A DNA stretch of 58,638 nt from a virus (Duplodnaviria; Caudoviricetes): positions 1 to 58,638 of IMG/VR virus record IMGVR_UViG_3300042868_006575; one strand, 5' to 3'. A program made the translations under genes and the position numbers. The notes beneath the pieces were generated by a model. That model was not told the origin of the DNA. It made no database searches and was given only the letters and a program-made list of their open reading frames with translations. Below are positions 9,649-55,406 of the stretch, in pieces (within the stretch, counting starts at the first letter, position 1; each line of letters begins with the position of its first letter).

Positions 9649-9975
9649 TTAAGCTGCTGTTGTAGTTGTGGTTGTTGGAGCTGCTGTAGTAGTAGTGGTA
9701 GTAGTAGTTTGAATACCACTTCCGTTAATTGCAGCAACTAATCCAGCTACTGTAGCATTTGAATAAAACTTTGTAGATGGTTGATTTAATCCATTAGGAT
9801 AGAAATCAATTACAGAGTTCATTTGAACGCCATTTGCTACAACAGCGCTTGCTGTAACTTGAATAGCGTTTGTTGGGAAAGAGAATAACACACCAGCTGT
9901 TGCCGGGGTACCATTTTGATTGAATAAATCATTTTGGTTTTGACGATAAACATAAACGGATACTTGATTTGCCAT
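9649..9975 (-). CDS. Putative virion decoration protein with C-terminal poly-Thr tail
   Basis: Ends TTTTTTTTAAPTTTTTTAA; paralog of 9351..9614. Confidence 0.7.
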   Translation of the reverse strand: MANQVSVYVYRQNQNDLFNQNGTPATAGVLFSFPTNAIQVTASAVVANGVQMNSVIDFYPNGLNQPSTKFYSNATVAGLVAAINGSGIQTTTTTTTTAAPTTTTTTAA

Positions 9976-10018
9976 TTTTTTTAATTTTTTTTTGTTAAAT
10001 ATTTTTATTTGGGCAATA

Positions 10019-10062
10019 CAAATATAATAAATTTTGTTAAATATATGAAATGATTAACTTTG
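10019..10062. promoter_or_regulatory. Divergent promoters (decoration genes / packaging operon)
   Basis: TATATTTG minus 10019-10026; TAACTTTG plus 10055-10062 with TTTG at 10033-10036. Confidence 0.65.
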
Positions 10063-10081
10063 AATTAAATTAATTAAACTA

Positions 10082-10750
10082 ATGAAATTAAAAGCACCTA
10101 AAAACAGGGTAATTGTTCAGATAGATTTAGAGAGCAAAAATACCCATACCTTCTCTGATGGTACTAAAATAAGACTTGAAAGACAGTATGACAACTTTAA
10201 TATGAGATATGTCAAACCTGTTAATGCCACTGTAATAGACGGAGCTGGTATACCGGAAGGTTCGGATATTTTAATACACCATAATGCTACGCATGACACA
10301 TACCGTATATTTAATTATAGGCCCCCCACCCTTGAAGCTTCCTCTGAGGTTAGGATATTTTCAATACCTCAAGAGGAATGTTTCTTGTGGAAGGAATGTG
10401 GAACTAATGAGTGGAAAACATTAAACAATTTTATTACTGGATTAAGAGTATTTCAACCGTATAAGGGGTTAATTCAGGGTATTGAGCATAGTGTAATAAA
10501 GAATAAGATATATGTTACAAGCGGTCATTTGGCCGGAAAAGTTTGTGATACTGTGAAATCTGCGGATTATCAAATTATTTTTCAAGGTGCTGATGGTCAA
10601 GAGGAAAGTATAATAAGATTAAGGCATTGGGAAAAAGAAGAAAATAGTAGAGAAGAAATAATAGCTATAGATCATATTTCTACTGATTTAGTAAAAAAGG
10701 GTGATTTATATGTTGGTATTGCAGTATCTGATGCTAGAAAATTAAATTAA
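10082..10750 (+). CDS. Conserved phage protein, possible divergent GroES-like fold
   Basis: MKLKAPKNRVIV start and GSDILIHHN resemble Cpn10 strands; upstream of terminase. Confidence 0.5.
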   Translation: MKLKAPKNRVIVQIDLESKNTHTFSDGTKIRLERQYDNFNMRYVKPVNATVIDGAGIPEGSDILIHHNATHDTYRIFNYRPPTLEASSEVRIFSIPQEECFLWKECGTNEWKTLNNFITGLRVFQPYKGLIQGIEHSVIKNKIYVTSGHLAGKVCDTVKSADYQIIFQGADGQEESIIRLRHWEKEENSREEIIAIDHISTDLVKKGDLYVGIAVSDARKLN

Positions 10751-10752
10751 TT

Positions 10753-11142
10753 ATGTCAGCAGAATTAGAACAAAAAATAAAGGAACTGGAAAAATCAAAT
10801 GCTTATTTAAGTGGAAAACTGGCTTATTATGAGCAGGATGGTGCAATTAAATTGTATTATAGTTTGCAAAGAAAGGCTAATGAAATGGCTGAATTGCTTA
10901 ATAGGATTAACCTATTAGATATTGAACTAATTGATCCGAAAGACAAATCGTTTGAAAGGCTGCAAAAACTTTGGTCCGAAGCTGGTACCATTACAGAGTC
11001 TATCAGGGCATTAGAAATATCTGCCGGCATAAATCAAGAGGGAAAAGAAGCTAAAAAAGATGCAATCGTAATAAATAAAAGACCTTTTTCACCAGAAAGT
11101 GTTGCTGATGAAATTGGTGAATTAGCAGGCAAACGCTCATAA
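10753..11142 (+). CDS. Probable terminase small subunit
   Basis: Helical 129-aa ORF 1 nt upstream of terL; assignment by position. Confidence 0.55.
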   Translation: MSAELEQKIKELEKSNAYLSGKLAYYEQDGAIKLYYSLQRKANEMAELLNRINLLDIELIDPKDKSFERLQKLWSEAGTITESIRALEISAGINQEGKEAKKDAIVINKRPFSPESVADEIGELAGKRS

Positions 11143-11143
11143 T

Positions 11144-13192
11144 ATGTACGAAAAAATAGAAAATGGTTCCACGATTCACATTCAGGGGTTAGACTGTAAT
11201 CTTCCGCCTGAAGGATATGTATTCAATATATTGACTAAACAGGTTGAGTTTAGAGGTGTTTATAAAAGGTCGGATGTTCAATCAGAGCAATATTGGAAAA
11301 GAATACCTCTACCCTCTTGGTATGCAGATACTATGAAAGAGTGGGATGAGTATGATAAAAAGAAAAAAGATGATGCTCCAGAGTTTTATAATGAAAAACT
11401 AGAGGAGTTTAAGAAGCAAGAATGGGATAGGAGATTGAATGGTTTTTGGTATATGAATAATGGGAAGCCGACCTATTTGACTGGCATGCACTATTTGTAT
11501 TTACAATGGTGGAGTATAGATATTGGTTATCCTAAATTCAGGATGCCAGACCTAGAGAAGTTCTATTTTATGGACTATTGCATACAGGATCCGCTTTGCA
11601 TGGGTATGCTTGAGGTTACGAAAAGACGTTTTGGTAAATCTTTTGTTGCTGGTTTATTTGTTACAGAATATACTACTAGAACCAAAATGACAAATGGTGG
11701 TATTCAATCTAAAACCGGTTCGGATGCTAAGAAGTTCTTTGCTAAGACGGTTGTGAATCCATTTAGGAGGCTTCCTAAGTTTTTTAGACCTGAATATGAT
11801 ATGTCTTTGGGGGTTAATCCAAAATCTGAAATGAGGTTCCAGAAAACTAACGTGAGGGGCAAGAAGGCGGAAGAAAACGTAGATAAAGACGAGCTTGGTT
11901 CTGTTATTGACCACCAGTCTGCTGATACGGTAGCTTATGATGGACAAAAATTACATAGGTATGTGGCGGATGAGTGCGGTAAAACAACTGAGGTAAACGT
12001 ATATGATAGACACGAGGTTGTGCGTTATTGCTTATTAGATGATGAAGGTAAAATAATTGGTAAAGCACTTTACACTACAACCGTAGAGAAACTTACATCT
12101 GAAAAGGATGGTGTTCAAGAAGCTTTTAAACTTCTTTGGGAAGAAAGCAATCAAGAGAAAAGACAGGAAAATGGGGCTACATCAAGCGGTTTGTATAGAT
12201 TTTTCATGTCTGCCAAAAGAACAAGAAACTTTGATGATTTTGGTTATCCGGACGAAGAAAAAACTTTATTACAGATTGAGGCTGACCGAGAAACAGTTAA
12301 AAACAACCCTAGAGCATTATCAGCCCGTATTAGAAAGGAGCCATTAACTATTGATGAAGCTTTTAGTACAGATGCGGATGGTTGCATATTTAACGTAATG
12401 AATATAGGCGCAAGAGAGGCCTATTTAAAAGAAAACCCGGTATTGAAAAGAAAGGTTGTTTTCTATAGAGATATTGATCAAAGTGTTAGATGGAGAGATG
12501 CAACCGACAGAGAGGAGGATTTTCACTGGAAAATAACCCAATTTCCACCAAAAGGAGAAGAAAATAAATATCAATATGATTTAAAGCTAAAAAAGCCGGG
12601 TAGGCATCATGACGGGGCTATAGCAATTGATGGATATAGTAATAGTCAGGGCGGTAAATTTGGTTCAAAAGCATCTGCTTGGATTGGCAGAAGGTATGAT
12701 ATGATGGATCCAAAAAACACGGGAAAGGCTATTGGGCACTTATATGGACGTCCGCAAATAAAAGAAATGCTACATGAGCAGGTTATGTTGGCTGCTGAGT
12801 ATTATGGCTATAAGGCTTGGTACGAGCATAACAGTGATGATTATTTATCTTATTTTAGAGAACGAGGTCGTGTTGGGTATCTTGGCTCCTATCCTATGAT
12901 TTCAATTGATCCATCTAAAAGGGAAAACGCTGAAAGGTACAAGGGGTTCCCTACAACTCCTTTTAGCCTTACAAAACAGGCTGATACGGGTATTATGTAT
13001 TTTGAGCATCATATTGATTCTATAGATTTTGAAAATTTATTAGAAGATGCAAAAAAGTTTGATCCAAATAACAGAACTGATTTTGACCAAACTGTATCAT
13101 TTTTAATGTTATTGGTTTGTTTAATGGAGCCAGTACAAAAGCAAGAAAAAAGAGAACCTTTGGTAAAAACTTATGTTCCTTCATTAAGTTAA
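11144..13192 (+). CDS. terL: Terminase large subunit
   Basis: KRRFGKS Walker A, YVADECGK Walker B, IAIDGY nuclease Asp, YLTGMHYLYLQW. Confidence 0.92.
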   Translation: MYEKIENGSTIHIQGLDCNLPPEGYVFNILTKQVEFRGVYKRSDVQSEQYWKRIPLPSWYADTMKEWDEYDKKKKDDAPEFYNEKLEEFKKQEWDRRLNGFWYMNNGKPTYLTGMHYLYLQWWSIDIGYPKFRMPDLEKFYFMDYCIQDPLCMGMLEVTKRRFGKSFVAGLFVTEYTTRTKMTNGGIQSKTGSDAKKFFAKTVVNPFRRLPKFFRPEYDMSLGVNPKSEMRFQKTNVRGKKAEENVDKDELGSVIDHQSADTVAYDGQKLHRYVADECGKTTEVNVYDRHEVVRYCLLDDEGKIIGKALYTTTVEKLTSEKDGVQEAFKLLWEESNQEKRQENGATSSGLYRFFMSAKRTRNFDDFGYPDEEKTLLQIEADRETVKNNPRALSARIRKEPLTIDEAFSTDADGCIFNVMNIGAREAYLKENPVLKRKVVFYRDIDQSVRWRDATDREEDFHWKITQFPPKGEENKYQYDLKLKKPGRHHDGAIAIDGYSNSQGGKFGSKASAWIGRRYDMMDPKNTGKAIGHLYGRPQIKEMLHEQVMLAAEYYGYKAWYEHNSDDYLSYFRERGRVGYLGSYPMISIDPSKRENAERYKGFPTTPFSLTKQADTGIMYFEHHIDSIDFENLLEDAKKFDPNNRTDFDQTVSFLMLLVCLMEPVQKQEKREPLVKTYVPSLS

Positions 13193-13226
13193 TTTTTTTT
13201 TTTACTTTTGTTTGTAGGATATTTAT

Positions 13227-13253: not shown

Positions 13254-15650
13254 TTGGCCTCAAATCCATTAGACATAAATCCTTATAACGGCAGCGGACA
13301 GTCTTTGAAAGACTTTCAGTTGACTACAAACGTGCCTTCTAAATTAGATTTAGATTACGGTAGAAAAGTTGCCCAAAATATCTATGGTACTATTTATGGT
13401 AACCAGTCTTATTTTTGGATTAGAAATAATCGTTTTAGAAAAAATAGACAAATTGCAAACGGCAAGATAGATATGAGCGTATTTCTTGATCGTTTAGAAA
13501 TGAACGGTAAGAATAACTATGTAAATATTAACTGGAAATCTATTGTTATTGGCAATACAATTGTTTCAAGATTAGTTGGTTCTTGGATGAATCGCAGAGA
13601 AAAAATAAATGTAACTGCTGTAGATCCAACATCTGCTAATATTAAAAAAGAAATTGCTGATGAAGCTGAATTTGTTTATCAAAACAAAGAGATTTTATCT
13701 CAATTGCAACAAGAGTCTGGTATACCTGTAATTCCTCAAGATCAATTTATAGCAGAAGATAAAGAGGATTTAGATCTTTGGGTTTCTGAATTCAATCGTT
13801 TGCCTGAAGAAATTAAGTATAGCCTAGGTATTAATAATATATTTGACGCTAATGGATGGAACGCTGTTTTAAAGCACAGAATTCTTCATGATAGCGCAGA
13901 AGTTGGTTTAGTGTGTACATATACTTGGATGGATGATGAAGGTCAGATTCATGTAGATTGGATTAGACCAGAAAACGCAATTTATTCATATTCTGATTTT
14001 GCTGATTTTAGAGATACTACCTATAGAGGTCATATTTCATCAATGAAGATTAGCGAAGTAAGAGCCAGATATGGAAAAGCAGGCAACGGAAATTTATCAG
14101 AAGAAGAAATATTCAAGATAGCTCAGTTTTCAAAAGAGTATCAATTAACCGATAAGATTAAGTGGATGCAGGATTGGAACGTAGCTTATTTACGTCCTTA
14201 TGATGAGTGGAATATTGATTTGATGAATTTTGAAATTAGAACTTTAGATTCTGATGGTTATACTGTAACCAAAACAAAAAAGAATGGCAGCACTATTATA
14301 AGAAAAGGAAAGCCAGAAAAACTTGATGATAATCAAGAATATGTAGAAGAGAAGAAGTGGAATATATATAAAGGAGTTTATTGCCCTAACACAAAGACAA
14401 TGCTTGAGTGGGGTATTAAGAAAAACATGATTCGTCCGCAAGATCCAAAAGAAATGGGTGATGCGGAATTTTCTTATAGTTTCTACATGTATGATTTATA
14501 TGACATGAGAAACGTGGCTGTTCCAGAAAAAATTGAAGAGCCTATTGAACAAATGATTTTAGCTAGGTTGAAGATTCAGCAAATGGTATCAAAGATGGTG
14601 CCGGCAGGAGCTTCAATTGATGTTGATGCTTTGCAAGAATTAGATTTAGGTTTAGGTGATTCTGTAAAACCTTTAGATGTTCAAAAAATTTGGGAACAAA
14701 CTGGTAAATTATATTATCGTGGTAGAGATGCCGAAGGTAATCGTATCCCGGTTCCTATTAATGAATTGGCTAATACAGGGTTCGCGCCTCAGCTACAAGC
14801 TTTAATTCAATTATATCAATTCCATTATCAAGTTCTGAAAGATGAATTAGGTGAAGATCCTAATTTAATGAATCAGGCTGCACAACCAAGAGTCGCTGCT
14901 TCTAATATTGAAGCATCAAGACAATTGGCAAATAATGCAACAGACTACATGTATGATGCATATTTGTATGTAATGGAAGAAACTGGTAAAAAAGTAGCAT
15001 GTTTATTAAATAAAAGTGTTACTCATGGATCTAAAAAATATAGAGATATATTAAGACAAGAGGAAGTTAAGGATAGAAATTTCTTAGCTAAAGTTCAAAT
15101 GTTGCCAACTGATTTAGAAATAGTTAAATTAGAGGCAATGATGAATAATTCTATTACAGCAAATCCTCAATTAGTTTTATATCTTGATCCGTTTAAAATA
15201 ATGAGAGTTGCTAAGGAAAATGTAGAATTAGCTGAACTTTATTTTAGACAAGCTCAAAAGAAATATATAAAAACAGAGCAAGAAAAAGCTCAAACAAATA
15301 GTGAGCAAAATGCTCAAATACAGCAAGCTAGTATGCAGGCAAAAGCTCAGGGTGATGCCGCATTGCAGTCAGCTCAAACTCAATCAAGACAAAAAGAAAT
15401 TGTTTTACAGGGTTTATTTGATTTAGCAAAAGCTGGAATACCTGTTCCATCAGAATTACAGCAAGTTGTAAGCGGCGTTATTCAAAATTTTGATGTACCA
15501 TTAGAAATGGAAAATCAACAAATGATGCAAAGCATACAGCAGCAACAAATGGAACAAGAGCAACAAATGCAGCAAGAAGGACAAGCTCAACAACAAGAGC
15601 AGCCGCAGGAAGAAATGATTGAAGAACAAGAACAATTACAAACAGTATAA
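13254..15650 (+). CDS. Portal protein
   Basis: 798 aa after terL; long Q-rich C-terminal coil typical of P22/crAss-type portals. Confidence 0.85.
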   Translation: MASNPLDINPYNGSGQSLKDFQLTTNVPSKLDLDYGRKVAQNIYGTIYGNQSYFWIRNNRFRKNRQIANGKIDMSVFLDRLEMNGKNNYVNINWKSIVIGNTIVSRLVGSWMNRREKINVTAVDPTSANIKKEIADEAEFVYQNKEILSQLQQESGIPVIPQDQFIAEDKEDLDLWVSEFNRLPEEIKYSLGINNIFDANGWNAVLKHRILHDSAEVGLVCTYTWMDDEGQIHVDWIRPENAIYSYSDFADFRDTTYRGHISSMKISEVRARYGKAGNGNLSEEEIFKIAQFSKEYQLTDKIKWMQDWNVAYLRPYDEWNIDLMNFEIRTLDSDGYTVTKTKKNGSTIIRKGKPEKLDDNQEYVEEKKWNIYKGVYCPNTKTMLEWGIKKNMIRPQDPKEMGDAEFSYSFYMYDLYDMRNVAVPEKIEEPIEQMILARLKIQQMVSKMVPAGASIDVDALQELDLGLGDSVKPLDVQKIWEQTGKLYYRGRDAEGNRIPVPINELANTGFAPQLQALIQLYQFHYQVLKDELGEDPNLMNQAAQPRVAASNIEASRQLANNATDYMYDAYLYVMEETGKKVACLLNKSVTHGSKKYRDILRQEEVKDRNFLAKVQMLPTDLEIVKLEAMMNNSITANPQLVLYLDPFKIMRVAKENVELAELYFRQAQKKYIKTEQEKAQTNSEQNAQIQQASMQAKAQGDAALQSAQTQSRQKEIVLQGLFDLAKAGIPVPSELQQVVSGVIQNFDVPLEMENQQMMQSIQQQQMEQEQQMQQEGQAQQQEQPQEEMIEEQEQLQTV

Positions 15651-15660: not shown

Positions 15661-16047
15661 ATGGCAAATGCAACTAAAATATTAATTAGGCTTACTAAAT
15701 TTAGTTCAAAAATTAGTACAGTAGTAGATTGTACACAGGACTTTAATGCAAATAATAGTTATTATCAAGACATTTCTGGCTGGGATGTTGCGGTAGTTCA
15801 GTTGGTAAATCCGGGAACTACAGTACTGTTTAATACAACAAATGATGATGGTGCTATTACAGGTCAATTATTGCCTGCGCCTCAAGTTCCATTGTATTGG
15901 ACTCCGGTTTTAGGTGTTAATTTATCTACAAAAACCGATGTATCTTCATTGGCTGTAAGTGGTCTAGTTAGTTTTGGTATTGTTGGGAAGTATTTACAAT
16001 TAATTGCTTCTGGTTCAACTACCACAACAACAACTGCTGCACCATAA
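15661..16047 (+). CDS. Putative head decoration protein with C-terminal STTTTTTAAP
   Basis: Between portal and scaffold; beta-rich composition. Confidence 0.65.
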   Translation: MANATKILIRLTKFSSKISTVVDCTQDFNANNSYYQDISGWDVAVVQLVNPGTTVLFNTTNDDGAITGQLLPAPQVPLYWTPVLGVNLSTKTDVSSLAVSGLVSFGIVGKYLQLIASGSTTTTTTAAP

Positions 16048-16071: not shown

Positions 16072-16338
16072 ATGGCAAATTCAGTAGCATACGTTTTATC
16101 GAAAAATACATATTCATCAGCAACAGAGGCTTATAACGTAGGTGTTGCTCAGGGTACACAAATAGTTTACACAACTACATATACCTTATCAAATTCTAAC
16201 ATCCTTTATGCTGATAGCAAATTAACGCTTCCAGTTTATGGAGATGGTTCTAGTTGGTATGGTATTCAACTTTTAACGAACGAAAGCGTTAAATATGCAA
16301 TAACAATTGATGCTGATAGCACAATAGTTATAGACTAA
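16072..16338 (+). CDS. Putative small virion protein
   Basis: 88-aa S/T/Y-rich ORF in head module. Confidence 0.65.
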   Translation: MANSVAYVLSKNTYSSATEAYNVGVAQGTQIVYTTTYTLSNSNILYADSKLTLPVYGDGSSWYGIQLLTNESVKYAITIDADSTIVID

Positions 16339-21359: not shown

Positions 21360-21632
21360 ATGAAACCACTTAGAGATTTTGTTTTAATTAAACCTTGTGC
21401 TCCAGATGAGATTACAGAAGGGGGATTGTTTATTCCAGAAAGCGCAAGAGAAAGAAGTAGTAAAGCTGAAGTTGTAGAAGTTGGCAATGGAACACGCCAT
21501 ATCGAAATGGAAGCAAAGAAGGGTGATAAAATATTTCATATTAAAGGCGCTGGAGATGAGTTTATCATAAACGGAGAGCCTCATTATCTTATACGTCAGG
21601 TAGATATTCTATCTTATGTTTTAAATAATTAA
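21360..21632 (+). CDS. groES: Co-chaperonin GroES (Cpn10)
   Basis: MKPLRDFVLIK...TEGGLFIPESARE...VVEVGNG...KGD...DIL. Confidence 0.9.
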   Translation: MKPLRDFVLIKPCAPDEITEGGLFIPESARERSSKAEVVEVGNGTRHIEMEAKKGDKIFHIKGAGDEFIINGEPHYLIRQVDILSYVLNN

Positions 21633-22411: not shown

Positions 22412-25400
22412 ATGATAATAAATAACCCGTTTAATGGAAAGCTGAATTTAGATGATGCAGAATATAGAATCAGCAATGGTGACTATTTAGATGCCCTGAA
22501 TATTACTAAAGATGCTCAAGGCAGAGGTCAAGACGAAGTTATTTCTAACATTGTTGGGAATAGCTTGGTTCAATATACATTACCATCGGGTACTAATAAA
22601 GTAATTGGTTTTTATCCAGATAGAATTAGAAACAGAGCGTACTATTTTGTTTGGAATAGCAATAATTATCATAGCATATTGTATTATGATGTTGACAATG
22701 ATATTGTTGTAAAAGTTCTACAAAGCAGAACGGATAGTGACAATATTGATATTTTAAAGTTTAATCCTTCTTATAAGGTTCTTTCAGTAAATATTTTTTA
22801 TAGAGATGATGAGGGTGATATTTTATACTTTAACGATGGATTAAATCCTCCGAAAAGCATAAACGTAACAACCAGTTATGGTACTTCATGGAAAGAGGAG
22901 TATTTGCTTATTGCAAAAGCGCCTCCTATCATGCCTCCAAAAGTTGTTTACGAAAATGATACAAATGTTACTGTAAACAATTTGAGAAATGCATTATTTC
23001 AGTTTTCTTATAGATTTGTTTATGAGAATAATGAAAAATCTGTATGGAGTTCAAAAAGTATTGTTCCATTGCCTCAGCAACCAACTTTACAATTAACTGA
23101 AAGTAATTATTTTAATAATTCAAGAATATCTGTATCCGTTTCAACGGGTGATGCAAATGTTTCAGCTATTGAGATAGCATTTAGAGAAACAAAAAATCAA
23201 ACTACAAGTGATTGGTTTTTAATTAAATCATTTGATAAAACAGAGCTTTCTATTGGCAACAATCAGATTTATACTTATAAGTTTTATAATGACAGTATTT
23301 ATAATGCTATTGATGTATTAGAAACAACACAGCTTCAGGATTATGTTCCTCAAAAGGCTAATGCAGCGGAGTTGGCAAATGGTAATGTTCTTTTGTATGC
23401 AGGTATTACAGAAGGGTATGATAAGACTGATATGAATTTATTGTCTTATTCCGCAAATCCTGTCTTATCCTCTTATTATTATGACCAACCGGGTTTGTTG
23501 TTTTTTGCATCATGCAACGGGAAAGATAGTGGTTCTATTGGAACCCAAATGAAAATATATGTCTTTGGTACCGGAACTAATTCTAGTAATGGAACTATTT
23601 CTGTATTAAATAATCCATCAGGTCAGTATATTATCAATGCTGTAAATGATGCAGGTTCTTATATCGGATCTTCTTATGAGTATAGCTCGTCTACTCCTTT
23701 ATCGGTTTCTGCTTTTTTAGGAAACATATCTACCGCTTTGAGTATTAATGGTTGGTCGCAGGTTTCTTTAGTGGATAATGTACTTACTATGTCTTATCCT
23801 ACTTCTTTCACGTTATACTCAAGTGGTGTAAAATATAAGAGCGCAACAGGAAATCCAGATACCACAGTGTTTGCAAATGCATGGAATTCTGGATATCAAT
23901 ATGCTGTTCAGTATTTTGATGAGGAAGGTAGAACGATTGGTGCGCAAACTAAAATAGATGCTGCATTTAATACTCCAGACAATCCGGGTATTAAATATCC
24001 TCAAACATTTTTACAAATAAAAAACAGGCCCCCATTAGAGGCTGTTTATTATCAAGTTCTTAGATCTAACACGACAACTTACAATAAGAGATTATTCTGG
24101 ATTTGCGAATCGGCTTACAGAAGTCCATTATCTGGTGTAAATGTTGGCGTTTTTAATACTCAAGAATTTGCTTACATAGGAATTGGAAATATAGCTGATT
24201 ATAATAAAGAAATAAGTTCAACAGAAAATGTTGTATCTTATTCTTTTACTCCCGGAGATAGAATTACCTTTTTAAGAAGATATGACGCATCTGGTAATGA
24301 AAAAGGTATTAAAGTTGTTGATTATGAAATATTAGGTGTTGAGAATTCTATTTTAACCACAGCAGGAGATATAGTAGGAACTTTTATTAAGATAAAATAT
24401 CCAAAAGATGATATAAATGCTGATTTTAATTTTAATGGATATTTGGATTTAAACTTTATGCATTATGAAATATTTTTGTATAATTTAACAAGCGCAGCAG
24501 ATGTTAGTCAAAGATTTTTCTATGAATTTGGAAAATGTTTTGGTATAGGAAATGCCGGAACTGCTAACGCATATCATATAGGTCTTGAACAGACTCAATC
24601 TGCTACAAACCCAACAGGTGTACCTGCTATAGTTTCAGCTACTACGGGTGACTTTTTTTACAGAAAAAGACAAGTTCCATTTAGTGACGCAAATATATTT
24701 GATGCAGGTGATCAAGATGTAAATATACCTGCTACAAGTCCGGGGTTTTATAGAACAATAAATATAAAACCTAAATTCCCTATTGATACTCCGGATTATA
24801 GTATTCAAGCGGAAATTGAAAGTAACGCTTCTTATATATATGGATCTTATCCTACTTTTGCTGATCAAGCGTTTTTCTATAACAAGAGTGCAGGCGATAT
24901 TATGATTAAGGTAGCTTTTCAAATAAAAGTTACATCTACAATTGCTTTACAAGATATACCTAATGTGGTAATACTTCAGGTAGACTCTACTACCAAGACT
25001 TATGGCAATATGTTTTTTACCAAAACAGGTGATTTAACTAGTGGAGCTTTTTTGACTTGCGATACTATTATTAAGGTACCTGCTAATACTAAAATTTGGT
25101 TTGCTATTGATGGTGAAGATTGTTATGTAAGTAACTTTAAGCTTACTTTCAATGTATTAAAAAGCAAGGTGATTGACATTATTGAAAGCAGTTTTAGTGA
25201 TAACTATAATCTTGTTACAAATAGCAATGGCAGACCATCAGTGGTAGATGAAAACGCAAAAAGAACATACTTCCCTACATTAATTAGATTTAGTGGAGCT
25301 TATCAAGTTAATACTAATATAAATGCTACCAATAATTTTCAATATGAGAATTTTGACGAATACGATAGAAGTTTTGGTGATGTTATAAGGCTTCATGTTA

Positions 25401-27546: not shown

Positions 27547-27825
27547 ATGGGTGTAGCTAAAATAACATTATCATCAGCAGGTCCGGAAACTGGGCCGTTT
27601 GACTTGTATACAAATTTGGATGGATTTACAACTCCGTTTGAGGTTGGTGTTTCTAAGGCAGCTTTATTGGCTGGTTTTGTAAGTAATAATTTTCCTTACT
27701 CTCCCGTATATCCGGGACTTGGACAACCTGTGACGGTTAGGATTCAGTCAACTCTATTTTGTATAAATTATAGGGACGTTTCAGTTACATATCCTACAAC
27801 TACGACAACAACGGCTGCACCTTAA
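27547..27825 (+). CDS. Small putative virion protein ending TTTTTTAAP
   Basis: GPFDLY...LLAG...C pattern resembles N-domain of 26941..27528. Confidence 0.7.
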   Translation: MGVAKITLSSAGPETGPFDLYTNLDGFTTPFEVGVSKAALLAGFVSNNFPYSPVYPGLGQPVTVRIQSTLFCINYRDVSVTYPTTTTTTAAP

Positions 27826-42893: not shown

Positions 42894-44960
42894 TTAAGCA
42901 GGCTGCGAACCTGCTTTTTTTATTTCATCTATTACCATATCAGGAGTAATACTATTCTGACATTCAAATTGTCTATCTGTTCCCTTATGTTTAGGGCAAA
43001 ATGCCCAATCTCCAGCATCAAATCTTATATCTGGCTTATTCCAACAACCATGACAGACATTTGTATTGTAAGGTCTTATACATTCAAATTCATGGTTAAT
43101 ATCAGTAAATCCTGCAATCATGATAACTTTCTTGCCTAATCCAAAAGCAAGCCATGAAATTCCTGATGATAATCCTATGAAAATTTCAGAATAATGTATA
43201 ACAGACATTGTATTTTCTATGCTAGTATCTTCCAATTGGTAGCAGTTGTTAAATGGATTGCGTTCTTTTGATGTATTTATGACATTGTAGCCACTTTCCA
43301 CCAAAAAGTCTATAACCTCCTGCCAATGACTTCTGAGCCAAAATTTAAGCCCTGAAGTGCTATTTGTAGCTATTGTAACATATTTGCCGTATTTATTGTT
43401 ACCTATGTCATATTTTAATCTTGGTCTAACTTCCTCAAAATCCAGTCCCAATATATTACTAGCTGCCTTTTGTAGCGGAATAGTATTGCATAATACAGGC
43501 TCTCTGTTTGAATCATAAAACCATCCAATCTTGTACATAGCATAACAACTTATAGAGCTGCCCGGCTCTACTAATTCTAATTCCGGATAGTCCAGTATTT
43601 TATTCCAAAAAGTAGATACAATGACTTTGCACTGATGCTTTTTTCTAAATTCTTCACAATATCCAATCCAAGCCAATGTGTCCCCTAAACTCTTGCTTTC
43701 AAAAGATATAAAGACTCTTTTGCCATGCAAATCCAATACGTTTTCATAGATTAAATCTCTGTCCTGATATACATACGTTTTCCATTTGGTATAGTATTGT
43801 CTATTAAGTCTTACCCAGCTATTGCTTTTGATTACACTTTGGTATTGGCATACATCATTTTCATCATAAAATCTAACATCAAAGTCACTATCGCTTTCTC
43901 CTTTTATTTCAAGGAAAGGGTGGTTGATGAAGTTTTGTAAGATGCGGACGGATTGTTTTTTAATAGGAAACTTTACGATTTCTTCGTACATCTTAACATG
44001 ATCTAATGCAAAATTTATTGAATTATTGTTATTTGGTATATTGTAATCTCTTGTAATAGTATATAAATCGCTATCTAATGGCTTTATGTATTTGTCTAAG
44101 GTGTCTTTGTAAGCTGGTAGGTTATTGGCTATAATCGGTAATCCAACCTCAATAGCATGTCGTATAGACAATGGGGAACATTCATTAGTAGAAGGGAATA
44201 TGAATATGTCAGCTGCCTGCAAAAGAATATCAATATCGCTTCGCTCTCCAAGTGCCTTAAAATTTGTTGGCAAATCTTTAATCAAATCCTCCCAATAAAA
44301 CTGAAAATTTCCGGCCATGTTACCAGCTACTACAAAATCAATATCCGGAAAATTCCGCGCAATAGCAATTGTTTCTTTTTGATTCTTTTGTGGTGTCCAA
44401 AGTCCAATATGTAATGCAGTTTTTCTATCTAAGGAAAATCCAACTTTCTTCTTTGCTTCCAACTTCATGTCAGAAGTTACCTCTTTTTCTTCTATTGGGT
44501 ACTGAATTGTGAAATATTTAGAGTCCATGTTTGCGTACACATCTTCATGAAAAGGAGTACAAAAAGCGTACAAATCTGGGTGGAATACCTTATCTGCATC
44601 AGGATTGAAAATGTTATCATGTGGGGTTTCTACAATTCTGTAAGTCCTATTATTTGAATATAAAGCTTTCGCAAGCTCTCTTGGTAACCTTTCAGCCACA
44701 TCTTCAATATGGACTATATCTGGATTTATCTGGTTAATAATATCCATTACGCGCATCTTATTCTCACCAGCTTCATAAAACCTATCACCAAGCAAATCTA
44801 CTATCTGATTCCTTTGAACCACATAAGCAGATCCATGAAAATTAAGCTCAATGCAATAAACTTCTATTCCCGAATATGCAAGTAAGCTTTGTATTCTTTT
44901 AAGCGCAAACATAGGTGCGCCACCCGTACTCAAATGGTACTCAATTAGTAATACTTTCAT
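42894..44960 (-). CDS. Two-domain glycosyltransferase: GT4-like + AAH/TibC-type protein O-heptosyltransferase
   Basis: GGA, QKNQ, DIFIFPSTNECSPLS (GT4); SLGDTLAW, FIGLSSGISWLA, CHGCW...CPKHKGTDRQFEC (TibC iron finger). Confidence 0.85.
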   Translation of the reverse strand: MKVLLIEYHLSTGGAPMFALKRIQSLLAYSGIEVYCIELNFHGSAYVVQRNQIVDLLGDRFYEAGENKMRVMDIINQINPDIVHIEDVAERLPRELAKALYSNNRTYRIVETPHDNIFNPDADKVFHPDLYAFCTPFHEDVYANMDSKYFTIQYPIEEKEVTSDMKLEAKKKVGFSLDRKTALHIGLWTPQKNQKETIAIARNFPDIDFVVAGNMAGNFQFYWEDLIKDLPTNFKALGERSDIDILLQAADIFIFPSTNECSPLSIRHAIEVGLPIIANNLPAYKDTLDKYIKPLDSDLYTITRDYNIPNNNNSINFALDHVKMYEEIVKFPIKKQSVRILQNFINHPFLEIKGESDSDFDVRFYDENDVCQYQSVIKSNSWVRLNRQYYTKWKTYVYQDRDLIYENVLDLHGKRVFISFESKSLGDTLAWIGYCEEFRKKHQCKVIVSTFWNKILDYPELELVEPGSSISCYAMYKIGWFYDSNREPVLCNTIPLQKAASNILGLDFEEVRPRLKYDIGNNKYGKYVTIATNSTSGLKFWLRSHWQEVIDFLVESGYNVINTSKERNPFNNCYQLEDTSIENTMSVIHYSEIFIGLSSGISWLAFGLGKKVIMIAGFTDINHEFECIRPYNTNVCHGCWNKPDIRFDAGDWAFCPKHKGTDRQFECQNSITPDMVIDEIKKAGSQPA
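42896..42921 (+). terminator. Intrinsic terminator
   Basis: AAGCAGG-ctgcgaa-CCTGCTT then T run, at convergence with GT gene. Confidence 0.7.
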
Positions 44961-45765
44961 GTTTTTTTGAATTCAAGTTTTTAATTAATTGTTCTCTCAT
45001 TCTCTCTATAAATTCAGGGCTTCTTTTTTTGCCTTTATTTGCTAAAGAAATTTTATTTTTTGCTTCTTGACTAAGATTTTTCCCAAGCATTGGTGGATTT
45101 ATTTTAACTCTTTCTCTTTGTTTTTCATTCATTTCCTCAGTTCTCTTTTTGCCTTTATTCCCTAATGATATTTTTTTCTTTGTTTCTTCTGAATGGTTTT
45201 TCCCCCAATTTGGACTTAACTCTTTCTTTTTTCCCCACATTGCATTTTTTTCTTTTTCAAATAATCCAGTTACTCCTTTGTTCCAAGATGGTTTACCAAA
45301 ACAAGGATGATTTTCTCCTTTTTTTGCAGATATTTTCATTTTTTGTTTAGTTTCTTCTGAATGTTTTTTGCCCCAATTTGGACTTAATTCTTTGGATTTA
45401 CCAAACATAGCATTTTTAACACCCTTGCTTCTTTCGGAAAACTTCTTTTTTGTTTCTTCAGTATGTATAACTCCAAATGCTCCATCGCCACCATCTGTTA
45501 AATTGCATAAATTACCCAAGTTATTATTTCTTCTTCCGTAAAAAGAAATTAAATATTTTTCAATAGAACATGCCTCTTCCCATAATATATCCCTATGTGT
45601 TATTTCAACTATTATGCCGTATTTATCTTTTATTTTGTTCCAGAATTGGTTTCTTCTACTATTTATTTGGTATGCTCTTTTGTCAGATTTACCAATTCCA
45701 ACATAAAATACGTTTAAAAATGGATCTTCAATATCCTTCCTTCTGTGTATATAAACTATTGCCAT
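44941..45765 (-). mobile_element. Free-standing GIY-YIG-like homing endonuclease with NUMOD3 repeats
   Basis: VYIHRR...FYVGIG, NLTDGGDG, repeated GKKHSEETKxK; start taken at ATG 45765. Confidence 0.85.
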
Positions 45766-45902
45766 AAAACAAAAAATGCCCAAAATAGAAGGCTTATTCC
45801 CTTTATAAGATAATGTATAGGGACATCTAAATTGGGCAAAAAGTTTGTAATATTTTTAATCATATATAAGGGAATAAGCACTATAAAGATAGTAAATTAT
45901 TC

Positions 45903-46735: not shown

Positions 46736-48082
46736 TTATTTGTTTAGTTGGTTTATAAATTCCTTAATCTTTTCAATGTTTTTTTCTCCATGATAGAAAA
46801 GGAGGTGTTCTTTATGTGAAGGTACTTTAATCCATGGCCCTATTAAATTATCATGACCAGTAAATTCTAGGTCTTTGTGTAGTCCATTGATGTAGCAGTA
46901 TGGTAATCCTGAAAACGTCATACGCTTATACAGAAGGGCTTGAAGTATTGTTTCTTCATGGAAGGGTGCGTAATAGTTGTGGTTCTTTAATACTTTAGGG
47001 TGGTTGCACATCCAGTACCACTCATCTAAAAACTCAATGGTATTTTGCCCAGCAACATAATATCCTGTTTGCCTGTATCTGTTACGGACATACTGGTTTA
47101 TGTTAAATAGTTCACAGGCTGGTGCTTCTAATGTAGTGCTTAAATCCGCCCTACTTTCAGCGCCACCTCTACCATTGACCATAAGATATTCATAGATACC
47201 TTCTGTAAAATAGGGGTGACTAGATTCTTCATTATAGAAAGTAAAGATGTTGTCAACAAATGGACTAGCCACAGAGTCAGAATCCACATACGCAATCGTT
47301 TCAGCATAGTTTTCCAGTGCATGTTTGGTTATTAAAGGTCTTTGTATAAGTAATTTGTAGATGCTTTTATTGGATCTATCAATGTAGTCGGCCCTTTGTT
47401 TCAGATGCTTTACATCACAATCCCATCTTATTGTTTCAGTATTTTCAATCTTTTTATCAGAGTTAAGCATGTAAACTAGGATTGGTATCTCGCTGAACTT
47501 ACGGATTGATTCAACGCACAATTGAACCAAATCGGCATACGACTCATCTGCATATAGCAAATAAGCTTTCTTATGCTTGTAAGTTCTGTTTACATAGTAA
47601 CCATAGTACTGGTTGGCATATAGTAGTTGTAATTCTGGGTATCTGGTTTCCATAACCTCCGGAGTTAAATCAGGCTGCAAATGAGTTTCATGGGCATTGC
47701 CTTCATGCTCTCCCTGTTCCATAAGATATGGCACTGCCACCAAGCACTGCTTACCACTGGTTACTATCTTTCTGATTATACTTTGTGCATCTTCCACGGA
47801 CAAATGCTCCAGCACATCACCCATGATGATAAACTCGTAATAATCAAAGTGAAAGCCAACTACGCTCTGTATAAATACGTTGTTGTATTTCTTATCTAAT
47901 TGGTAATTAACTACATAGGGTTCGTATATCTCTACGCAATCCATGTAGTAGCCATAGTTTTTTAGCATATCAGAATAGGTGCCAATACCAGCGCCTACAT
48001 CTAATATCTTTTTGTTTACGGCTACGTTATCTACAATGTAATCCCTGACTTCTTGTTTGAAAAATTGAAAGCTAGTTGGCAT
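46736..48082 (-). CDS. SAM methyltransferase + GT-A glycosyltransferase fusion
   Basis: ILDVGAGIG, GDVLEH in N-half; AYVDSDS DxD, QTG, HEET, FYHG in C-half. Confidence 0.8.
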   Translation of the reverse strand: MPTSFQFFKQEVRDYIVDNVAVNKKILDVGAGIGTYSDMLKNYGYYMDCVEIYEPYVVNYQLDKKYNNVFIQSVVGFHFDYYEFIIMGDVLEHLSVEDAQSIIRKIVTSGKQCLVAVPYLMEQGEHEGNAHETHLQPDLTPEVMETRYPELQLLYANQYYGYYVNRTYKHKKAYLLYADESYADLVQLCVESIRKFSEIPILVYMLNSDKKIENTETIRWDCDVKHLKQRADYIDRSNKSIYKLLIQRPLITKHALENYAETIAYVDSDSVASPFVDNIFTFYNEESSHPYFTEGIYEYLMVNGRGGAESRADLSTTLEAPACELFNINQYVRNRYRQTGYYVAGQNTIEFLDEWYWMCNHPKVLKNHNYYAPFHEETILQALLYKRMTFSGLPYCYINGLHKDLEFTGHDNLIGPWIKVPSHKEHLLFYHGEKNIEKIKEFINQLNK

Positions 48083-48086: not shown

Positions 48087-48137
48087 TTAATTTAATTAAG
48101 CAAAAGTAATTAATTTAATTAAATAAATATATCTTTG
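48087..48137. promoter_or_regulatory. Divergent promoters with two TTAATTTAATTAA dyads
   Basis: TACTTTTG minus 48101-48108; TATCTTTG plus 48130-48137; dyads 48087-48099 and 48110-48122. Confidence 0.65.
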
Positions 48138-48152
48138 CCTAAAATAATTATT

Positions 48153-48530
48153 ATGAAAATAGAAGTAAGCATTGGCGAAATAGCCGATAAGTACACCATC
48201 TTAACCATCAAATCATTTGAAATTTTAGACGAGCAAAAGCAAATTAACATTAAAAAAGAATGGAAGTACATCAATAGTGTAATAAAAGAAAGCTTTCCTG
48301 AATTAGCCGCAGATCCATTGACACATAGGCTTTTGGATATAAACAGGCAGTTGTGGGTGGTAGAAGATTCCCTCCGAGATTGCGAAAACGACAGGGAGTT
48401 TGATAAGTTGTTTGTCTTTTTGGCAAGGCAGGTTTACAGGCTAAATGACCAAAGAGCAGACATCAAGAAGCAAATCAACATAAAGTATAAGTCCGACATT
48501 GTGGAGGAGAAGTCGTATAACGCTTATTAA
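48153..48530 (+). CDS. DUF6165-like protein
   Basis: IEVSIGEIADKYTILTIK...LWVVED...ARQVYRLNDQRA...EEKSY; ATG 48153 preferred over TTG inside promoter box. Confidence 0.75.
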   Translation: MKIEVSIGEIADKYTILTIKSFEILDEQKQINIKKEWKYINSVIKESFPELAADPLTHRLLDINRQLWVVEDSLRDCENDREFDKLFVFLARQVYRLNDQRADIKKQINIKYKSDIVEEKSYNAY

Positions 48531-50638: not shown

Positions 50639-50639
50639 A

Positions 50640-53062: not shown

Positions 53063-53066
53063 TTTT

Positions 53067-53093
53067 TTAATTTAATTAACTCGGTTAACTTTG
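53067..53093 (+). promoter_or_regulatory. Dyad plus promoter of second glycosylation operon
   Basis: TTAATTTAATTAA 53067-53079; TAACTTTG 53086-53093. Confidence 0.6.
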
Positions 53094-53105
53094 GAAAAAA
53101 AACAC

Positions 53106-54035
53106 ATGAAACTAAGATTTATTTGCGCTCAACCAACTTCCCTTTATTATGCATGGCAAGTAGAAGTTATGATAAATAACTTTATTGAAATGGGTATAAA
53201 TCCTAATATGATAGACATTGTTTGTTGGAAAATAAATGATGTTATTCCGGAGGAGTGGACTAAGCTGGCTGCCAATTATCCTGCAAGGTTCTTTTTTTAT
53301 TCTGATACCAGAGAAACCTCGCATTACATATCTTCAATACGTCCTAATATCTTAAAGCAGCACTTTGCAGCGCATCAATACATAGAGCAAGAGGCAGTCC
53401 TTTATCATGATTGCGATATAGCTTTTACCAAAAAGATAAACTGGGAGCAGTTTCTTGAAGATGACAAGTGGTATGGATCTGATTGTCGCTGGTACATAGC
53501 CCATAGCTACATATTAGGCAAAGGCCAAGACGTAATGGATAAGATGTGTGAAATAGTAGATATACCAGAAACATTGGTAAAAGACAATGAACTTAACTCA
53601 ATCGGAGCGCAATATTTAATGAAAGGCGTCAATGCGCGGTTTTGGGCGGACGTTGAAAAAGACTGCGAAAGACTATTCCATGAGGTAACGCAACTTAATA
53701 ATGAAAAGAAGCAAGCGGATCCAAGTCATCATGAATTACAGATATGGTGTGCAGATATGTGGGCGGTGCTATGGAACGGCTGGAAGCGTGGAGCGGAAAC
53801 AGTTTGCCATCCAGAATTAGAGTTTTCATGGGGTACAAGTACAGAAGCAGATTGGGATAGGTTAAATATATTCCACAATGCCGGTGTTACTACATCTGCC
53901 GGTGGGTTGTTTTACAAAGCAGAATACATGAATCAGTTGCCTTATGGTGCAACATTGAATATAAACGAGGGAACGGCCAGCAAGAAATACTGGGATATTA
54001 TACAAGAAACCGCTAAAAAATCAGTTTTATTATGA
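53106..54035 (+). CDS. GT-A glycosyltransferase resembling peptidyl-serine galactosyltransferase / Hyp-arabinosyltransferase (GT96/GT95)
   Basis: YYAWQ, YISSIRP, YHDCD (DxD), WCADMW in the same order as recalled SERGT1/HPAT motifs YFDWQ, YxxxNKP, LDAD, WISEMY. Confidence 0.65.
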   Translation: MKLRFICAQPTSLYYAWQVEVMINNFIEMGINPNMIDIVCWKINDVIPEEWTKLAANYPARFFFYSDTRETSHYISSIRPNILKQHFAAHQYIEQEAVLYHDCDIAFTKKINWEQFLEDDKWYGSDCRWYIAHSYILGKGQDVMDKMCEIVDIPETLVKDNELNSIGAQYLMKGVNARFWADVEKDCERLFHEVTQLNNEKKQADPSHHELQIWCADMWAVLWNGWKRGAETVCHPELEFSWGTSTEADWDRLNIFHNAGVTTSAGGLFYKAEYMNQLPYGATLNINEGTASKKYWDIIQETAKKSVLL

Positions 54036-54544
54036 CAACAAAAGTAGTAGAGTCGGAGAATCCACTTGAACATTGGAACGACATCCAGAATGTAGAAGGC
54101 AAAGTGGTGTTGGATTTAGGGTGCGGTTGGTTGTTCCAGCCATTTGAATCAACTCCGCAATATTTCATAAATAGAGGGGCTAAAAAAATAATTGGTGTAG
54201 ACGCATCATGCGGAGAGATTGAGAAACTAAATTCAACCTTCCCTGAACATACTTTTATTTGTAAAACCATTTCTAATTTTGATGATTTGCTTGGCTTGAT
54301 TACGGATCATAAGCCACAATTAATTAAAATGGATATAGAAGGCCATGAGCAACACATGAAGCATATTACTGCTGAACAATTTGAATCAGTGGAGGAGATA
54401 GCGGTTGAATACCACAATCCTACATGCAAAGAAATACTAGAAAAAAAATTAACTGAATTAGGTTTTGAGATATTTGCAACTAATCAATTTGGTTGGTTCT
54501 GCACAGATATTGAGCAAATGGGCATAATGCACGCAAAAAGATAA
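54032..54544 (+). CDS. Class I SAM methyltransferase (FkbM-like)
   Basis: VLDLGCG, IKMDIEGHE, VEYH. Confidence 0.75.
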   Translation: MTTKVVESENPLEHWNDIQNVEGKVVLDLGCGWLFQPFESTPQYFINRGAKKIIGVDASCGEIEKLNSTFPEHTFICKTISNFDDLLGLITDHKPQLIKMDIEGHEQHMKHITAEQFESVEEIAVEYHNPTCKEILEKKLTELGFEIFATNQFGWFCTDIEQMGIMHAKR

Positions 54545-54545
54545 T

Positions 54546-55406
54546 ATGATCATAAATAAAGCAACATACGGAGGTCAAGATTGTACTCAATTAATTAAGG
54601 ATAAAGTAGTATCAGATAAGCTTGTAGTAAGAGCTAATAATGATATTATAGGCGATCCGGCCGTTGGGGAGGTAAAGTATTTAGAGCTGGATATAGACGG
54701 CAATTTATTTAGTGTAAGGGAAGGTGGGGTATTTGTATATCCCAAGTCTAAAAGTAAAAAATTAGGCATATTCTATTCCAATAACAACAATAAAAAGATA
54801 TGGCCTTCAATATACAAGTCATTAAATACAATTAAGCAAGCCAGTAATGGAGTTGCGGACATTGTTACTTGTATGTGGGAGCCTATGCCGGAAAACCCTT
54901 TCTATCAAGTTAGAAGCTGGTACCAATCCCAATCTCATCTTAATCAGTTGCTCCAAATTATGCAGTGCCTTTACGCTGCACAAGAAACCGGTGAATATGA
55001 TTACGTTTCTTTTTTAGAGCATGACGTAATGTATCCAGAAGGATACTTTGATTTCCCTGAATTTGAGAGGGGCAGCGTTCTTACCAATATGAACTATGGC
55101 GGTCTTTGTATTAATGGTTGGCAAGAAAGAGGCCAAGATGATGAGCCATTTCACCAAATGACTATGAGATTTGAAGATGCCATTGAGCATTGCTTGTCAA
55201 TTTTGCCTAATGCCCTAAAAACGAACAGCGGTATGATTGAAAATCAAACAATAAGGCGGATCCAATGGAACTGCCAAAATCAAGCTATTCATATCAATCA
55301 TGGCGTACATTTTACCAGCCATAACTCAATATATCGCAAAGATAATTTATCTTTAACTCATAATTACTGGGGCGAATTGTCTAGTTATACCAATTTATTT
55401 GTATGA
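54546..55406 (+). CDS. Lectin-like N-domain + GT-A glycosyltransferase
   Basis: KATYG...GDPAVGEVKYL (SUEL/DUF3395-like); SFLEHDVMY. Confidence 0.6.
   Translation: MIINKATYGGQDCTQLIKDKVVSDKLVVRANNDIIGDPAVGEVKYLELDIDGNLFSVREGGVFVYPKSKSKKLGIFYSNNNNKKIWPSIYKSLNTIKQASNGVADIVTCMWEPMPENPFYQVRSWYQSQSHLNQLLQIMQCLYAAQETGEYDYVSFLEHDVMYPEGYFDFPEFERGSVLTNMNYGGLCINGWQERGQDDEPFHQMTMRFEDAIEHCLSILPNALKTNSGMIENQTIRRIQWNCQNQAIHINHGVHFTSHNSIYRKDNLSLTHNYWGELSSYTNLFV

Follow-up and report, generated by a model that had tools for sequence, protein, structure and literature searches.

Two candidate protein O-glycosylation systems and their predicted low-complexity acceptor tracts in a tailed phage genome

Are the threonine- and serine-rich tracts of phage particle proteins linked to particular phage-encoded glycosyltransferases (GTs), and which enzyme goes with which tract? 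This question is raised by the IMG/VR record IMGVR_UViG_3300042868_006575 (Duplodnaviria; Caudoviricetes), all 58,638 nucleotides of which are herein referred to as the window. Between positions 9,649 and 55,406, this genome encodes proteins with poly-threonine (poly-Thr) runs, a tail fiber with Gly-Thr/Ser-Ser repeats, and several predicted GTs. A preliminary description of the window proposed that these GTs glycosylate both kinds of tracts, giving a mucin-like coat on the particle. Comparison with about 200 IMG/VR phage records points to two separate enzyme-tract pairs, both held in this single 58.6-kb genome. In system A, poly-Thr runs are distributed together with the putative GT encoded at 53091-54035. 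In system B, proline-free Gly-Ser/Thr-Ser/Thr collagen-like tracts of the fiber are distributed together with a TibC/Aah-type GT encoded at 42894-44960. Genes are referred to herein by their coordinates or by their first position.

Runs of at least five Thr residues were found 16 times in the window, in 6 of the 63 open reading frame (ORF) products, which bears out the six tract-carrying genes of the preliminary description. In 1000 within-protein, composition-keeping shuffles, the mean number of such runs was 0.23 and the maximum was 3. The runs are encoded by mixed ACT, ACA, ACC, and ACG codons, and all six genes end with a TAA stop. Thus, the tracts are kept at the protein level and do not constitute a DNA microsatellite. 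A microsatellite or assembly artifact was ruled out by the mixed codons together with the conservation of the tracts in dozens of independent contigs. Stop-codon read-through or recoding was also considered as a source of the poly-Thr ends and rejected: the stop is TAA in all six genes, the downstream genes have their own starts, and no tRNA genes were found in the 58,638-base record.

Four of the tract-carrying proteins are small and have a bare C-terminal tail, while the tracts of two larger ones are inter-domain linkers. The tailed proteins are encoded at 9649-9975 (minus strand, tail T8-AAP-T6-AA), 15661-16047 (plus strand, directly after the portal gene, S-T6-AAP), 27547-27825 (plus strand, T6-AAP), and 42109-42474 (plus strand, directly after the fiber gene, T7-LAP). 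The last of these is a DUF7936 protein (Pfam, E = 1.5e-25). The domain match covers residues 5-109, so the T7-LAP tail lies outside the domain; this tail is present in 16 of 38 homologous loci. The linker-type proteins are a two-domain protein encoded at 26941-27528 (plus strand), with T4-S-T5-STS-T4 at residues 70-86, and a muzzle-like virion protein of 1503 residues encoded at 22412-26923 (plus strand; phrog_14478, virion structural protein, E = 2e-60). The latter has a poly-Thr linker, T10-IAP, at residues 1158-1167 (nucleotides 25883-25912) and a T/S-rich block with AAP and VAP spacers at residues 1326-1410 (nucleotides 26387-26641). Judging by gene position alone, the small tagged proteins would be located in the virion. 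The AAP/LAP cap, described earlier as typical of the tracts, is present in most tracts of the source phage but is not a general feature, since the runs of Firmicutes phages are followed by KP or QASSK.

To count tracts in other genomes, matches of a Thr6-coding DNA pattern were scored per record; the reversed pattern, used as a control, gave 0-8 matches. Tested records were pooled if their completeness was 90% or more. Each of the 27 such records with a 53091 homolog has 12-93 Thr6 matches (G000, G012, G017, G018, G021, G026, G027, G030, G031, G037, G039, G051, G056, G118, G121-G124, G127, G132, G133, G072, G083, G089, G099, G101, and G103). In contrast, all 14 near-complete records without a 53091 homolog have only 0-2 matches (G035, G042, G009, G015, G135, G151, G095, G161, G164, G174, G176, G182, G187, and G190). 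Seven of these 14 (G161, G164, G174, G176, G182, G187, and G190) were ascertained by collagen repeats only, so this part of the sample is blind to both the 53091 gene and poly-Thr. Thus, the co-distribution of tags and GT genes that the preliminary description had put forward as a check is clearly positive: the presence or absence of one goes with that of the other, in relatives as well as in phages without such kinship.

The most telling result for system A is a contrast inside the clade of the source phage. None of the 13 near-complete terminase relatives that were examined (82-100% identity) has lost the gene for the GT4-TibC fusion (42894-44960), which is thus a core gene of the clade. Two complete relatives, G035 and G042, have no 53091, 54032, or 54546 homologs and zero Thr6 matches, whereas the other clade members have 12-31. 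G035, whose terminase is 89% identical, keeps the GT4-TibC, 46736, and DUF6165 genes and is without 52442, 53091, 54032, 54546, and the DUF7936 gene. Its orthologs of the tagged proteins stop, or continue tract-free, where the tracts of the source phage begin. The ortholog of the 26941 product has 71 residues and ends with ...IPITN, at the tract start. The muzzle-like ortholog has 1195 residues, and its homology stops at residue 1154 of the 22412-26923 product, just before the first tract. The ortholog of the 27547 product (139 residues) has no poly-Thr, no tailed copy of 9649-9975 was found in G035, and the 15661 and 16072 products are one fused protein.

The tails also vary among other relatives. 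In relatives with a 53091 homolog, the number of T5-8-AAP units in orthologs of 9649-9975 ranges from one to four or more, so the length of this tail varies; inside the window, the paralog 9351-9614 has no tail. The 15661-16047 product is found in relatives as a tailed protein, as a tailless one, or fused to the domain encoded by 16072-16338 through a short poly-Thr-free linker. The fused form was observed in at least 12 relatives (L132, L135, L142-L144, L158, L159, L168, L170-L172, and L175). In the source phage, these are two genes 24 bases apart, and in this split form a T6-AAP tail has been acquired at the breakpoint.

Enzyme and tract are also neighbors in unrelated phages. An ORF with poly-Thr abuts the 53091 homolog in 16 of the 18 regions fetched. 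In phages of about 110 kb, the enzyme gene is located between two genes for mini-proteins, each consisting of a short domain and a T7-AAP tail. In phages of 30-55 kb, it follows the gene for a protein of 400-960 residues with 5-17 runs. Among the matches listed, 49 records with the T7-AAP pattern (from 50 of 80 listed loci) include 25 with a 53091 homolog (6 of the 7 at 90% completeness or more) and 9 with a TibC-like gene (3 of the 7). A tblastn search also detected the 53091 family in 77 records of cultured phages, the hosts being mostly Lactobacillus, Enterococcus, Staphylococcus, and Lactococcus. Enterococcus phage phiFL1A encodes its homolog, gp51, immediately downstream of gp50, the major tail protein, whose C-terminus is GT5ST6SST7QASSK, with a Thr/Ser run of 21 residues; the capsid-like gp45 of this phage ends with T5KPT5KPT7QG. 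In Chryseobacterium phage MA9V-3, proteins with Thr/Ser runs are encoded directly upstream of the 53091 homolog.

The 53091-54035 product (plus strand; ATG at 53106) is a soluble protein of phrog_4417 (E = 1e-63), a family of unassigned function with 858 representative clusters. No match to it was found in Pfam at E ≤ 10 or in NCBIfam, and a PDB sequence search with the protein or with the family profile gave nothing at E ≤ 0.01. The AlphaFold2 model (predicted local distance difference test [pLDDT] 97, predicted template modeling score 0.93) gave 340 PDB matches in Foldseek at E ≤ 0.001. These are led by WbbM, the UGGT catalytic domain, glycogenin, and GT6, and the top matches, LgtC included, have E-values of 1e-7 to 1e-6 and template modeling (TM) scores of 0.40-0.51. 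By its model, the protein is thus a GT-A-fold enzyme nearest to retaining GTs. In a 54-sequence alignment, D109 and H262 are invariant, and D107, conserved in at least 90% of the sequences, is nearly so; D107 and D109 form a DxD motif. This protein is the candidate priming enzyme of system A. The kinship to the plant enzymes SERGT1 and HPAT that was suggested earlier found no support in hidden Markov models. No match at E ≤ 10 to Pfam HPAT (PF23452) was found for the protein; none was found in the six-frame genome, where the control likewise gave no match, and none in the 144 family representatives scanned of 150. A search of the genome for the DUF7164 family, again with a control that gave no match, was also negative. 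HPAT is annotated on 10% of members in one Atlas neighbor cluster of the 53091 protein (score 0.97).

Two further genes complete the cassette. The 54032-54544 product (plus strand) is a candidate S-adenosylmethionine (SAM) methyltransferase, with matches below threshold (Pfam E = 0.03-0.07, NCBIfam E = 0.004). The 54546-55406 product (plus strand) begins with a small beta domain that contains a rhamnose-lectin-like motif and has a short match to the lectin 5h4s; for the domain that follows, the AlphaFold2 model (pLDDT 89.7) and Foldseek (BoGT6a and SpsA, E about 1e-6) indicate a GT-A fold. The structural comparison proposed in the preliminary description came out in favor of a GT-A fold for both GTs of the cassette. 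Its gene order is found elsewhere: the 54546 homolog comes after the 53091 homolog in L308, L309, L310, L321, and L322, and in L308 a 54032 homolog is situated between the two. The 53091 and 54546 domains are fused in P0122 and P0168, and at least 22 of the 144 representatives scanned have the 53091 domain fused with GT2, GT6, GT7C, GT29, or DXD-sugar-binding domains. Other unusual architectures were observed in this family. The representative P0151 (478 residues) has runs T9, T6, and T8 N-terminal to the enzyme domain; it may represent a fusion of acceptor and enzyme or two genes merged in gene calling. P0132 and P0146 show fusions of the 53091 domain with a radical-SAM/SPASM domain and with a methyltransferase domain, a hint that some phages may carry out additional tailoring reactions.

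The GT4-TibC fusion has another distribution. The preliminary description had assigned the priming of Thr/Ser tracts both to the 53091 enzyme and to the TibC domain. The former does track poly-Thr, but the latter does not: the fusion gene is present in four complete genomes without poly-Thr (G035, G042, G135, and G009) and tracks the Gly-Ser/Thr-Ser/Thr collagen repeats of fibers instead. Matches of the pattern (GGN WSN WSN)x4 were found in all 36 records with a TibC-like gene (1-182 matches each, G122 having only one) and in none of the 14 records without it, with a control pattern giving 0 throughout. Around DUF7936 homologs, long Gly-Ser/Thr-Ser/Thr fibers were found where a TibC-like gene is present and none in the records lacking it. 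The two systems also occur separately. Five genomes with system B but not A (G035, G042, G135, G009, and G151) have collagen tracts, 0-1 Thr6 matches, and no 53091 homolog. Conversely, six records with system A but not B (G072, G083, G103, G076, G078, and G090) have 24-93 Thr6 matches, no TibC-like gene, and no collagen-repeat matches. This is a double dissociation, and two enzyme-acceptor pairs fit it better than two priming enzymes sharing one tag.

The fiber itself is encoded at 38302-42105 (plus strand). Its Gly-Thr/Ser-Ser tracts, noted before, are indeed present and are of the collagen type (Pfam Collagen, PF01391, E = 4.1e-37, 8 stretches). They consist of uninterrupted Gly-X-Y triplets with almost only Ser or Thr at the X and Y positions and zero proline, and are located at about residues 30-255 and 423-575, in addition to a repeat-rich shaft. 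The C-terminus is a Peptidase_S74 self-cleaving chaperone domain (E = 6e-19). In total, 25 matches of the (GGN WSN WSN)x4 pattern were found in the 58,638-base record.

The 42894-44960 product (minus strand) contains a GT4 domain at about residues 120-300 (Glycos_transf_1, E = 2e-14) and a TibC/Aah-type protein O-glycosyltransferase domain at residues about 358-682. The latter scores 245.2 bits against TIGR04414 (curated cut-off 200; E = 1e-72) and matches PDB TibC 4rap at E = 4e-47 to 1.5e-46; by sequence criteria, this C-terminal half is a member of the BAHT/TibC-Aah family. In TibC, D110 is described as the catalytic aspartate and C339, C342, C358, and C370 as the iron-finger cysteines (PMC4358343). 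The catalytic Asp is aligned (SLGD vs. TLGD), as are the four iron-finger Cys (CHGCW...FCPKHKGTDRQFEC vs. CYGCW...WCPRHKNTDRQFEC). The alignment begins at TibC chain residue 60, preceded in the phage protein by the GT4 domain, and thus leaves most of the N-terminal beta-barrel (TibC residues 1-97) unmatched. Homologs of the fusion protein were found in 67 IMG/VR loci. The tblastn matches to it in G051, G056, G025, and G101 each contain one in-frame TAG and reach query residue 688; these TAGs may reflect an alignment overrunning the natural stop or TAG read-through.

A second enzyme of system B may be encoded at 46736-48082 (minus strand), a probable methyltransferase with a GT8-like domain. 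Its Methyltransf_23 match (E = 4e-5, 23.8 bits) is below the cut-off of 27, and its C-terminal half has a YVDSD motif and Atlas neighbors of the GT8/Nucleotid_trans type at 0.96-0.97. Of the five GT domains counted earlier in the genome, four are thus verified (GT4, TibC/Aah, 53091, and 54546), while the fifth, this C-terminal half, has the motif and the Atlas neighbors only; both of the two SAM-methyltransferase domains, here and in 54032-54544, have matches, each below threshold. A 46736 homolog adjoins the fusion gene in L069, L078, L086-L089, L097, L312, L324, L325, and G035. Another conserved neighbor of the system B genes is the DUF6165 gene (48135-48530, plus strand; Pfam E = 1e-10), found beside the cassette in L324 and G035.

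The proposed mechanism involves two independent cytoplasmic O-glycosylation systems that would act on the phage's own particle proteins before or during assembly, each recognizing its own simple low-complexity acceptor. In system A, the 53091-54035 enzyme would put the first sugar on the hydroxyls of poly-Thr runs. This sugar would probably be an alpha-linked hexose or N-acetylhexosamine (HexNAc) from a uridine diphosphate (UDP)-sugar, judging by the retaining-type fold. The 54546-55406 enzyme would extend the glycan, the 54032-54544 product might methylate or trim it, and the outcome would be mucin-like brushes on the particle. In system B, the TibC/Aah-like domain of the 42894-44960 product would glycosylate Ser or Thr in the collagen-like tracts of the 38302-42105 fiber, and the fused GT4 domain together with the methyltransferase/GT8-like 46736-48082 product would elaborate the fiber glycan. 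We consider it likely that the 53091 enzyme glycosylates poly-Thr; the general claim, of poly-Thr tract modification by system A at the least, is held to be rather likely. For system B taken alone, the chances that the TibC-like domain glycosylates the collagen tracts are judged to be about even.

Several other explanations were weighed against this mechanism. The Thr runs could be unmodified flexible spacers or entropic bristles, with the 53091 family acting on host surface glycans, a small molecule, or DNA. Linker behavior is indeed seen in the 22412-26923 and 26941-27528 products, where the runs join folded domains and where G035 has neither the run nor the downstream domain; moreover, a glycan on the runs is itself a prediction from sequence. 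However, in four of the six cases the tract is a bare tail at the C-terminus with nothing to join, the enzyme and the tract co-vary in near-complete genomes with no exception (27/27 vs. 0/14), and they abut in phages of both Bacteroidota and Firmicutes, which a shared linker style would not explain. We therefore regard unmodified spacers as an unlikely explanation. It is still less likely, to the point of being improbable, that the TibC-like domain and the 53091 enzyme both prime the same poly-Thr tags and that the fiber tracts are extra sites of one coat. Both enzyme sets and both acceptor types do occur together in the source genome and in the group of phages of about 110 kb, and the gene with the DUF7936 tail is only 420 bases from the TibC fusion gene, but the A-only and B-only genomes argue against a single coat.

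For the fiber, the alternative is that its tracts are unmodified collagen-like segments, that the GT4-TibC protein acts on another phage or host protein, and that the link between the two reflects the shared ancestry of aquatic phages. We consider this rather unlikely, though less so than either of the alternatives above. Collagen-like repeats are common in phage fibers (18 PHROG fiber families match the 38302-42105 product), and the known TibC/Aah substrates are beta-helical autotransporter repeats rather than collagen (for TibC, PMC4358343). Additionally, collagen Ser/Thr repeats were found without a TibC-like gene in three of seven near-complete records (G164, G174, and G176) and also in G172 and G175, so such fibers can exist without a TibC-like enzyme. 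On the other hand, the 36/36 vs. 0/14 split spans records of 36 kb to 476 kb and enzymes of 31-97% identity, and the enzyme gene is close to the repeat genes in many records: no more than about 15 kb separates it from them in G161, G178, G183-G187, G190, and G192. Five of the 14 TibC-negative records (G006, G007, G011, G015, and G016) carry a DUF7936 homolog and yet have zero repeat matches. Among the matches listed, 42 records with the 8-unit repeat (42 of 49 loci tested) include 16 with a TibC-like gene, 4 of the 7 near-complete ones among them.

Glycosylation by two dedicated enzymes has, in addition to the beta-helical substrates and the enzyme-free collagen fibers just mentioned, the following points to its disadvantage. 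The association is one-sided, the tract-to-enzyme direction being weaker for both systems. Poly-Thr was found without a detected 53091 homolog in G141, G029, G155/G156, G157, G168, and G170. Each of these records is incomplete: the G029 contig is cut beside the cassette, and G141 (33 matches), in which a whole-record search with the family profile gave no 53091 homolog even at E ≤ 10, is 64% complete and without a replication module, so that it cannot decide the matter. In the source phage, about 10.6 kb separate the 53091 gene from the closest tagged gene. The poly-Thr pattern itself was the route to six of the 27 positive records; other genes or the collagen repeat led to the remaining 21 and to 13 of the 14 negatives. 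The 18 neighborhoods were picked non-randomly from the match list. The counts are raw record counts without tree correction, and because the records share history, the independent gains and losses are far fewer than the counts. For system B, neither a heptose-activating gene nor an autotransporter was seen among the scanned ORFs of at least 80 residues. Finally, the support is comparative throughout, and for the source phage and all relatives we infer the glycan chemistry.

The nearest documented system is the virion glycosylation of mycobacteriophages Che8, Corndog, and Myrna, for which phage-encoded soluble GTs are described as modifying the C-termini of the phages' own capsid and tail-tube subunits (PMC12619734, PMC12363180). 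The likeness consists in phage-encoded soluble GTs and modified C-termini of particle proteins, which are experimental in those accounts and predicted here. Che8 gp108 also joins a GT domain with a methyltransferase domain, as the 46736-48082 product may. However, the Che8 enzymes gp108-110 are of other families (GT2, GT25, and methyltransferase in Pfam) than the GTs of the source phage, and the 53091-family profile has no similarity to gp110 (hhalign probability 0.1%). The Che8 capsid and tail proteins end with ...NKTGS and ...YSDGS, with no poly-Thr run, and the mycobacteriophage system has no TibC-like enzyme and no collagen acceptor. No Mycobacterium phage was among the 77 cultured-phage records found by tblastn with the 53091 protein.

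System B resembles the E. coli pairs TibC-TibA and Aah-AIDA-I (BAHT, TIGR04414, PDB 4RAP) in combining a cytoplasmic enzyme with a serine-rich repetitive protein acceptor, predicted here. It differs from them in the fusion to GT4, in a candidate acceptor that is a collagen-like triplet repeat and not a beta-helix, and in having no autotransporter among the scanned ORFs. The 53091 protein shares its fold, DxD motif, and conserved C-terminal His with retaining GT-A enzymes of the GT8/GT24/GT6 type, at an identity of only 6-14% to glycogenin, LgtC, UGGT, alpha-1,3-galactosyltransferase, and WbbM. The plant enzymes HPAT (GT95) and SERGT1 (GT96) act on extended, repetitive hydroxy-amino-acid tracts, and an acceptor of this kind is what is proposed for the 53091 enzyme.

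Phage-encoded virion glycosylation is known from the mycobacteriophages, and the two tag-enzyme pairings found here have strong comparative support. Judging by titles and abstract openings, no description of either pairing was found in the literature. A broader reading is that many tailed phages of Bacteroidota, Firmicutes, and unassigned hosts carry mucin-like O-glycan coats made through two orthogonal, portable acceptor grammars. Poly-Thr would be read by the GT-A family and proline-free Gly-Ser/Thr-Ser/Thr collagen by the phage relatives of TibC, and the tag could be grafted on any particle protein, as a tail or a linker, and would work wherever the matching enzyme is encoded. We see this broader reading as evenly poised between true and false. 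To our knowledge, particle glycans have been documented so far for only a few mycobacteriophages. Were the broader reading correct, the surfaces of phage particles would carry far more glycans than is assumed, and particle glycosylation would be common in aquatic, gut-related, lactic-acid-bacteria, and enterococcal phages. It could be predicted from the sequence, the signal being either poly-Thr in combination with a phrog_4417 enzyme or a Ser/Thr collagen tract in combination with a TibC-like one. This would give a function to a family of at least 858 sequence clusters and an explanation for many poly-Thr tails of phage proteins. Glycans on phage particles alter encounters with mucus, antibodies, proteases, and host surfaces. 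Paired with their soluble enzymes, the two kinds of short, genetically encodable tags might also serve for making glycoproteins in the bacterial cytoplasm. The cultured carriers, namely phiFL1A, Lactobacillus phages, and Chryseobacterium phage MA9V-3, make the idea directly testable.

The window is a single contig with a CheckV completeness estimate of 94% and a GC content of 29-44% across the record. It encodes the large terminase (11144-13192; phrog 6681, E = 7.5e-73) and the portal (13254-15650; phrog 6547, E = 6.5e-43), and PHROG models also match several virion structural proteins. The major capsid candidate, used as a query, gave no match in cultured phages. Matches to crAss models in Pfam are all below the cut-off of 27 (CrAss_Ring_2, 23.9 bits; crAss_MUZ, 18.7; crAss_MUZ_C, 18.3), and the source phage is probably a small crAss-like podophage. 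One relative, G024 (L122/L123; 59.9 kb), is classed as having inverted terminal repeats and contains the terminase twice, in opposite orientation; this duplication looks like a fold-back assembly artifact, and the record was excluded from the counts.

Some other genes of the window were also observed. The gene at 44941-45783 (minus strand), considered as a possible GT and rejected, encodes a NUMOD3 homing endonuclease with five NUMOD3 motifs (E = 1e-22). This gene is flanked by the GT4-TibC and 46736 genes, shares 20 bases at its end with the start of the GT gene, and has the look of a mobile element inserted into the glycosylation cassette. A GroES/Cpn10-like co-chaperonin gene (21360-21632; Pfam E = 6.5e-18) is located inside the structural module, and a second, weaker GroES-like match (10082-10750; phrog_13932) is found just before the terminase region. 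The late gene block includes a gene for a ferritin/rubrerythrin-like protein (33704-34198; Pfam Ferritin, E = 1e-14), flanked by those for two large unannotated proteins of 1062 and 940 residues. Three genes on the minus strand could have a DNA-modification function separate from the glycosylation finding: 4749-5528, with a weak match to 3'-phosphoadenosine-5'-phosphosulfate (PAPS) reductase, 56113-56736, of the phrog_3704 "ferredoxin" family (E = 1e-39), and 57531-58163, an N6/N4 DNA methylase (E = 5.5e-32).

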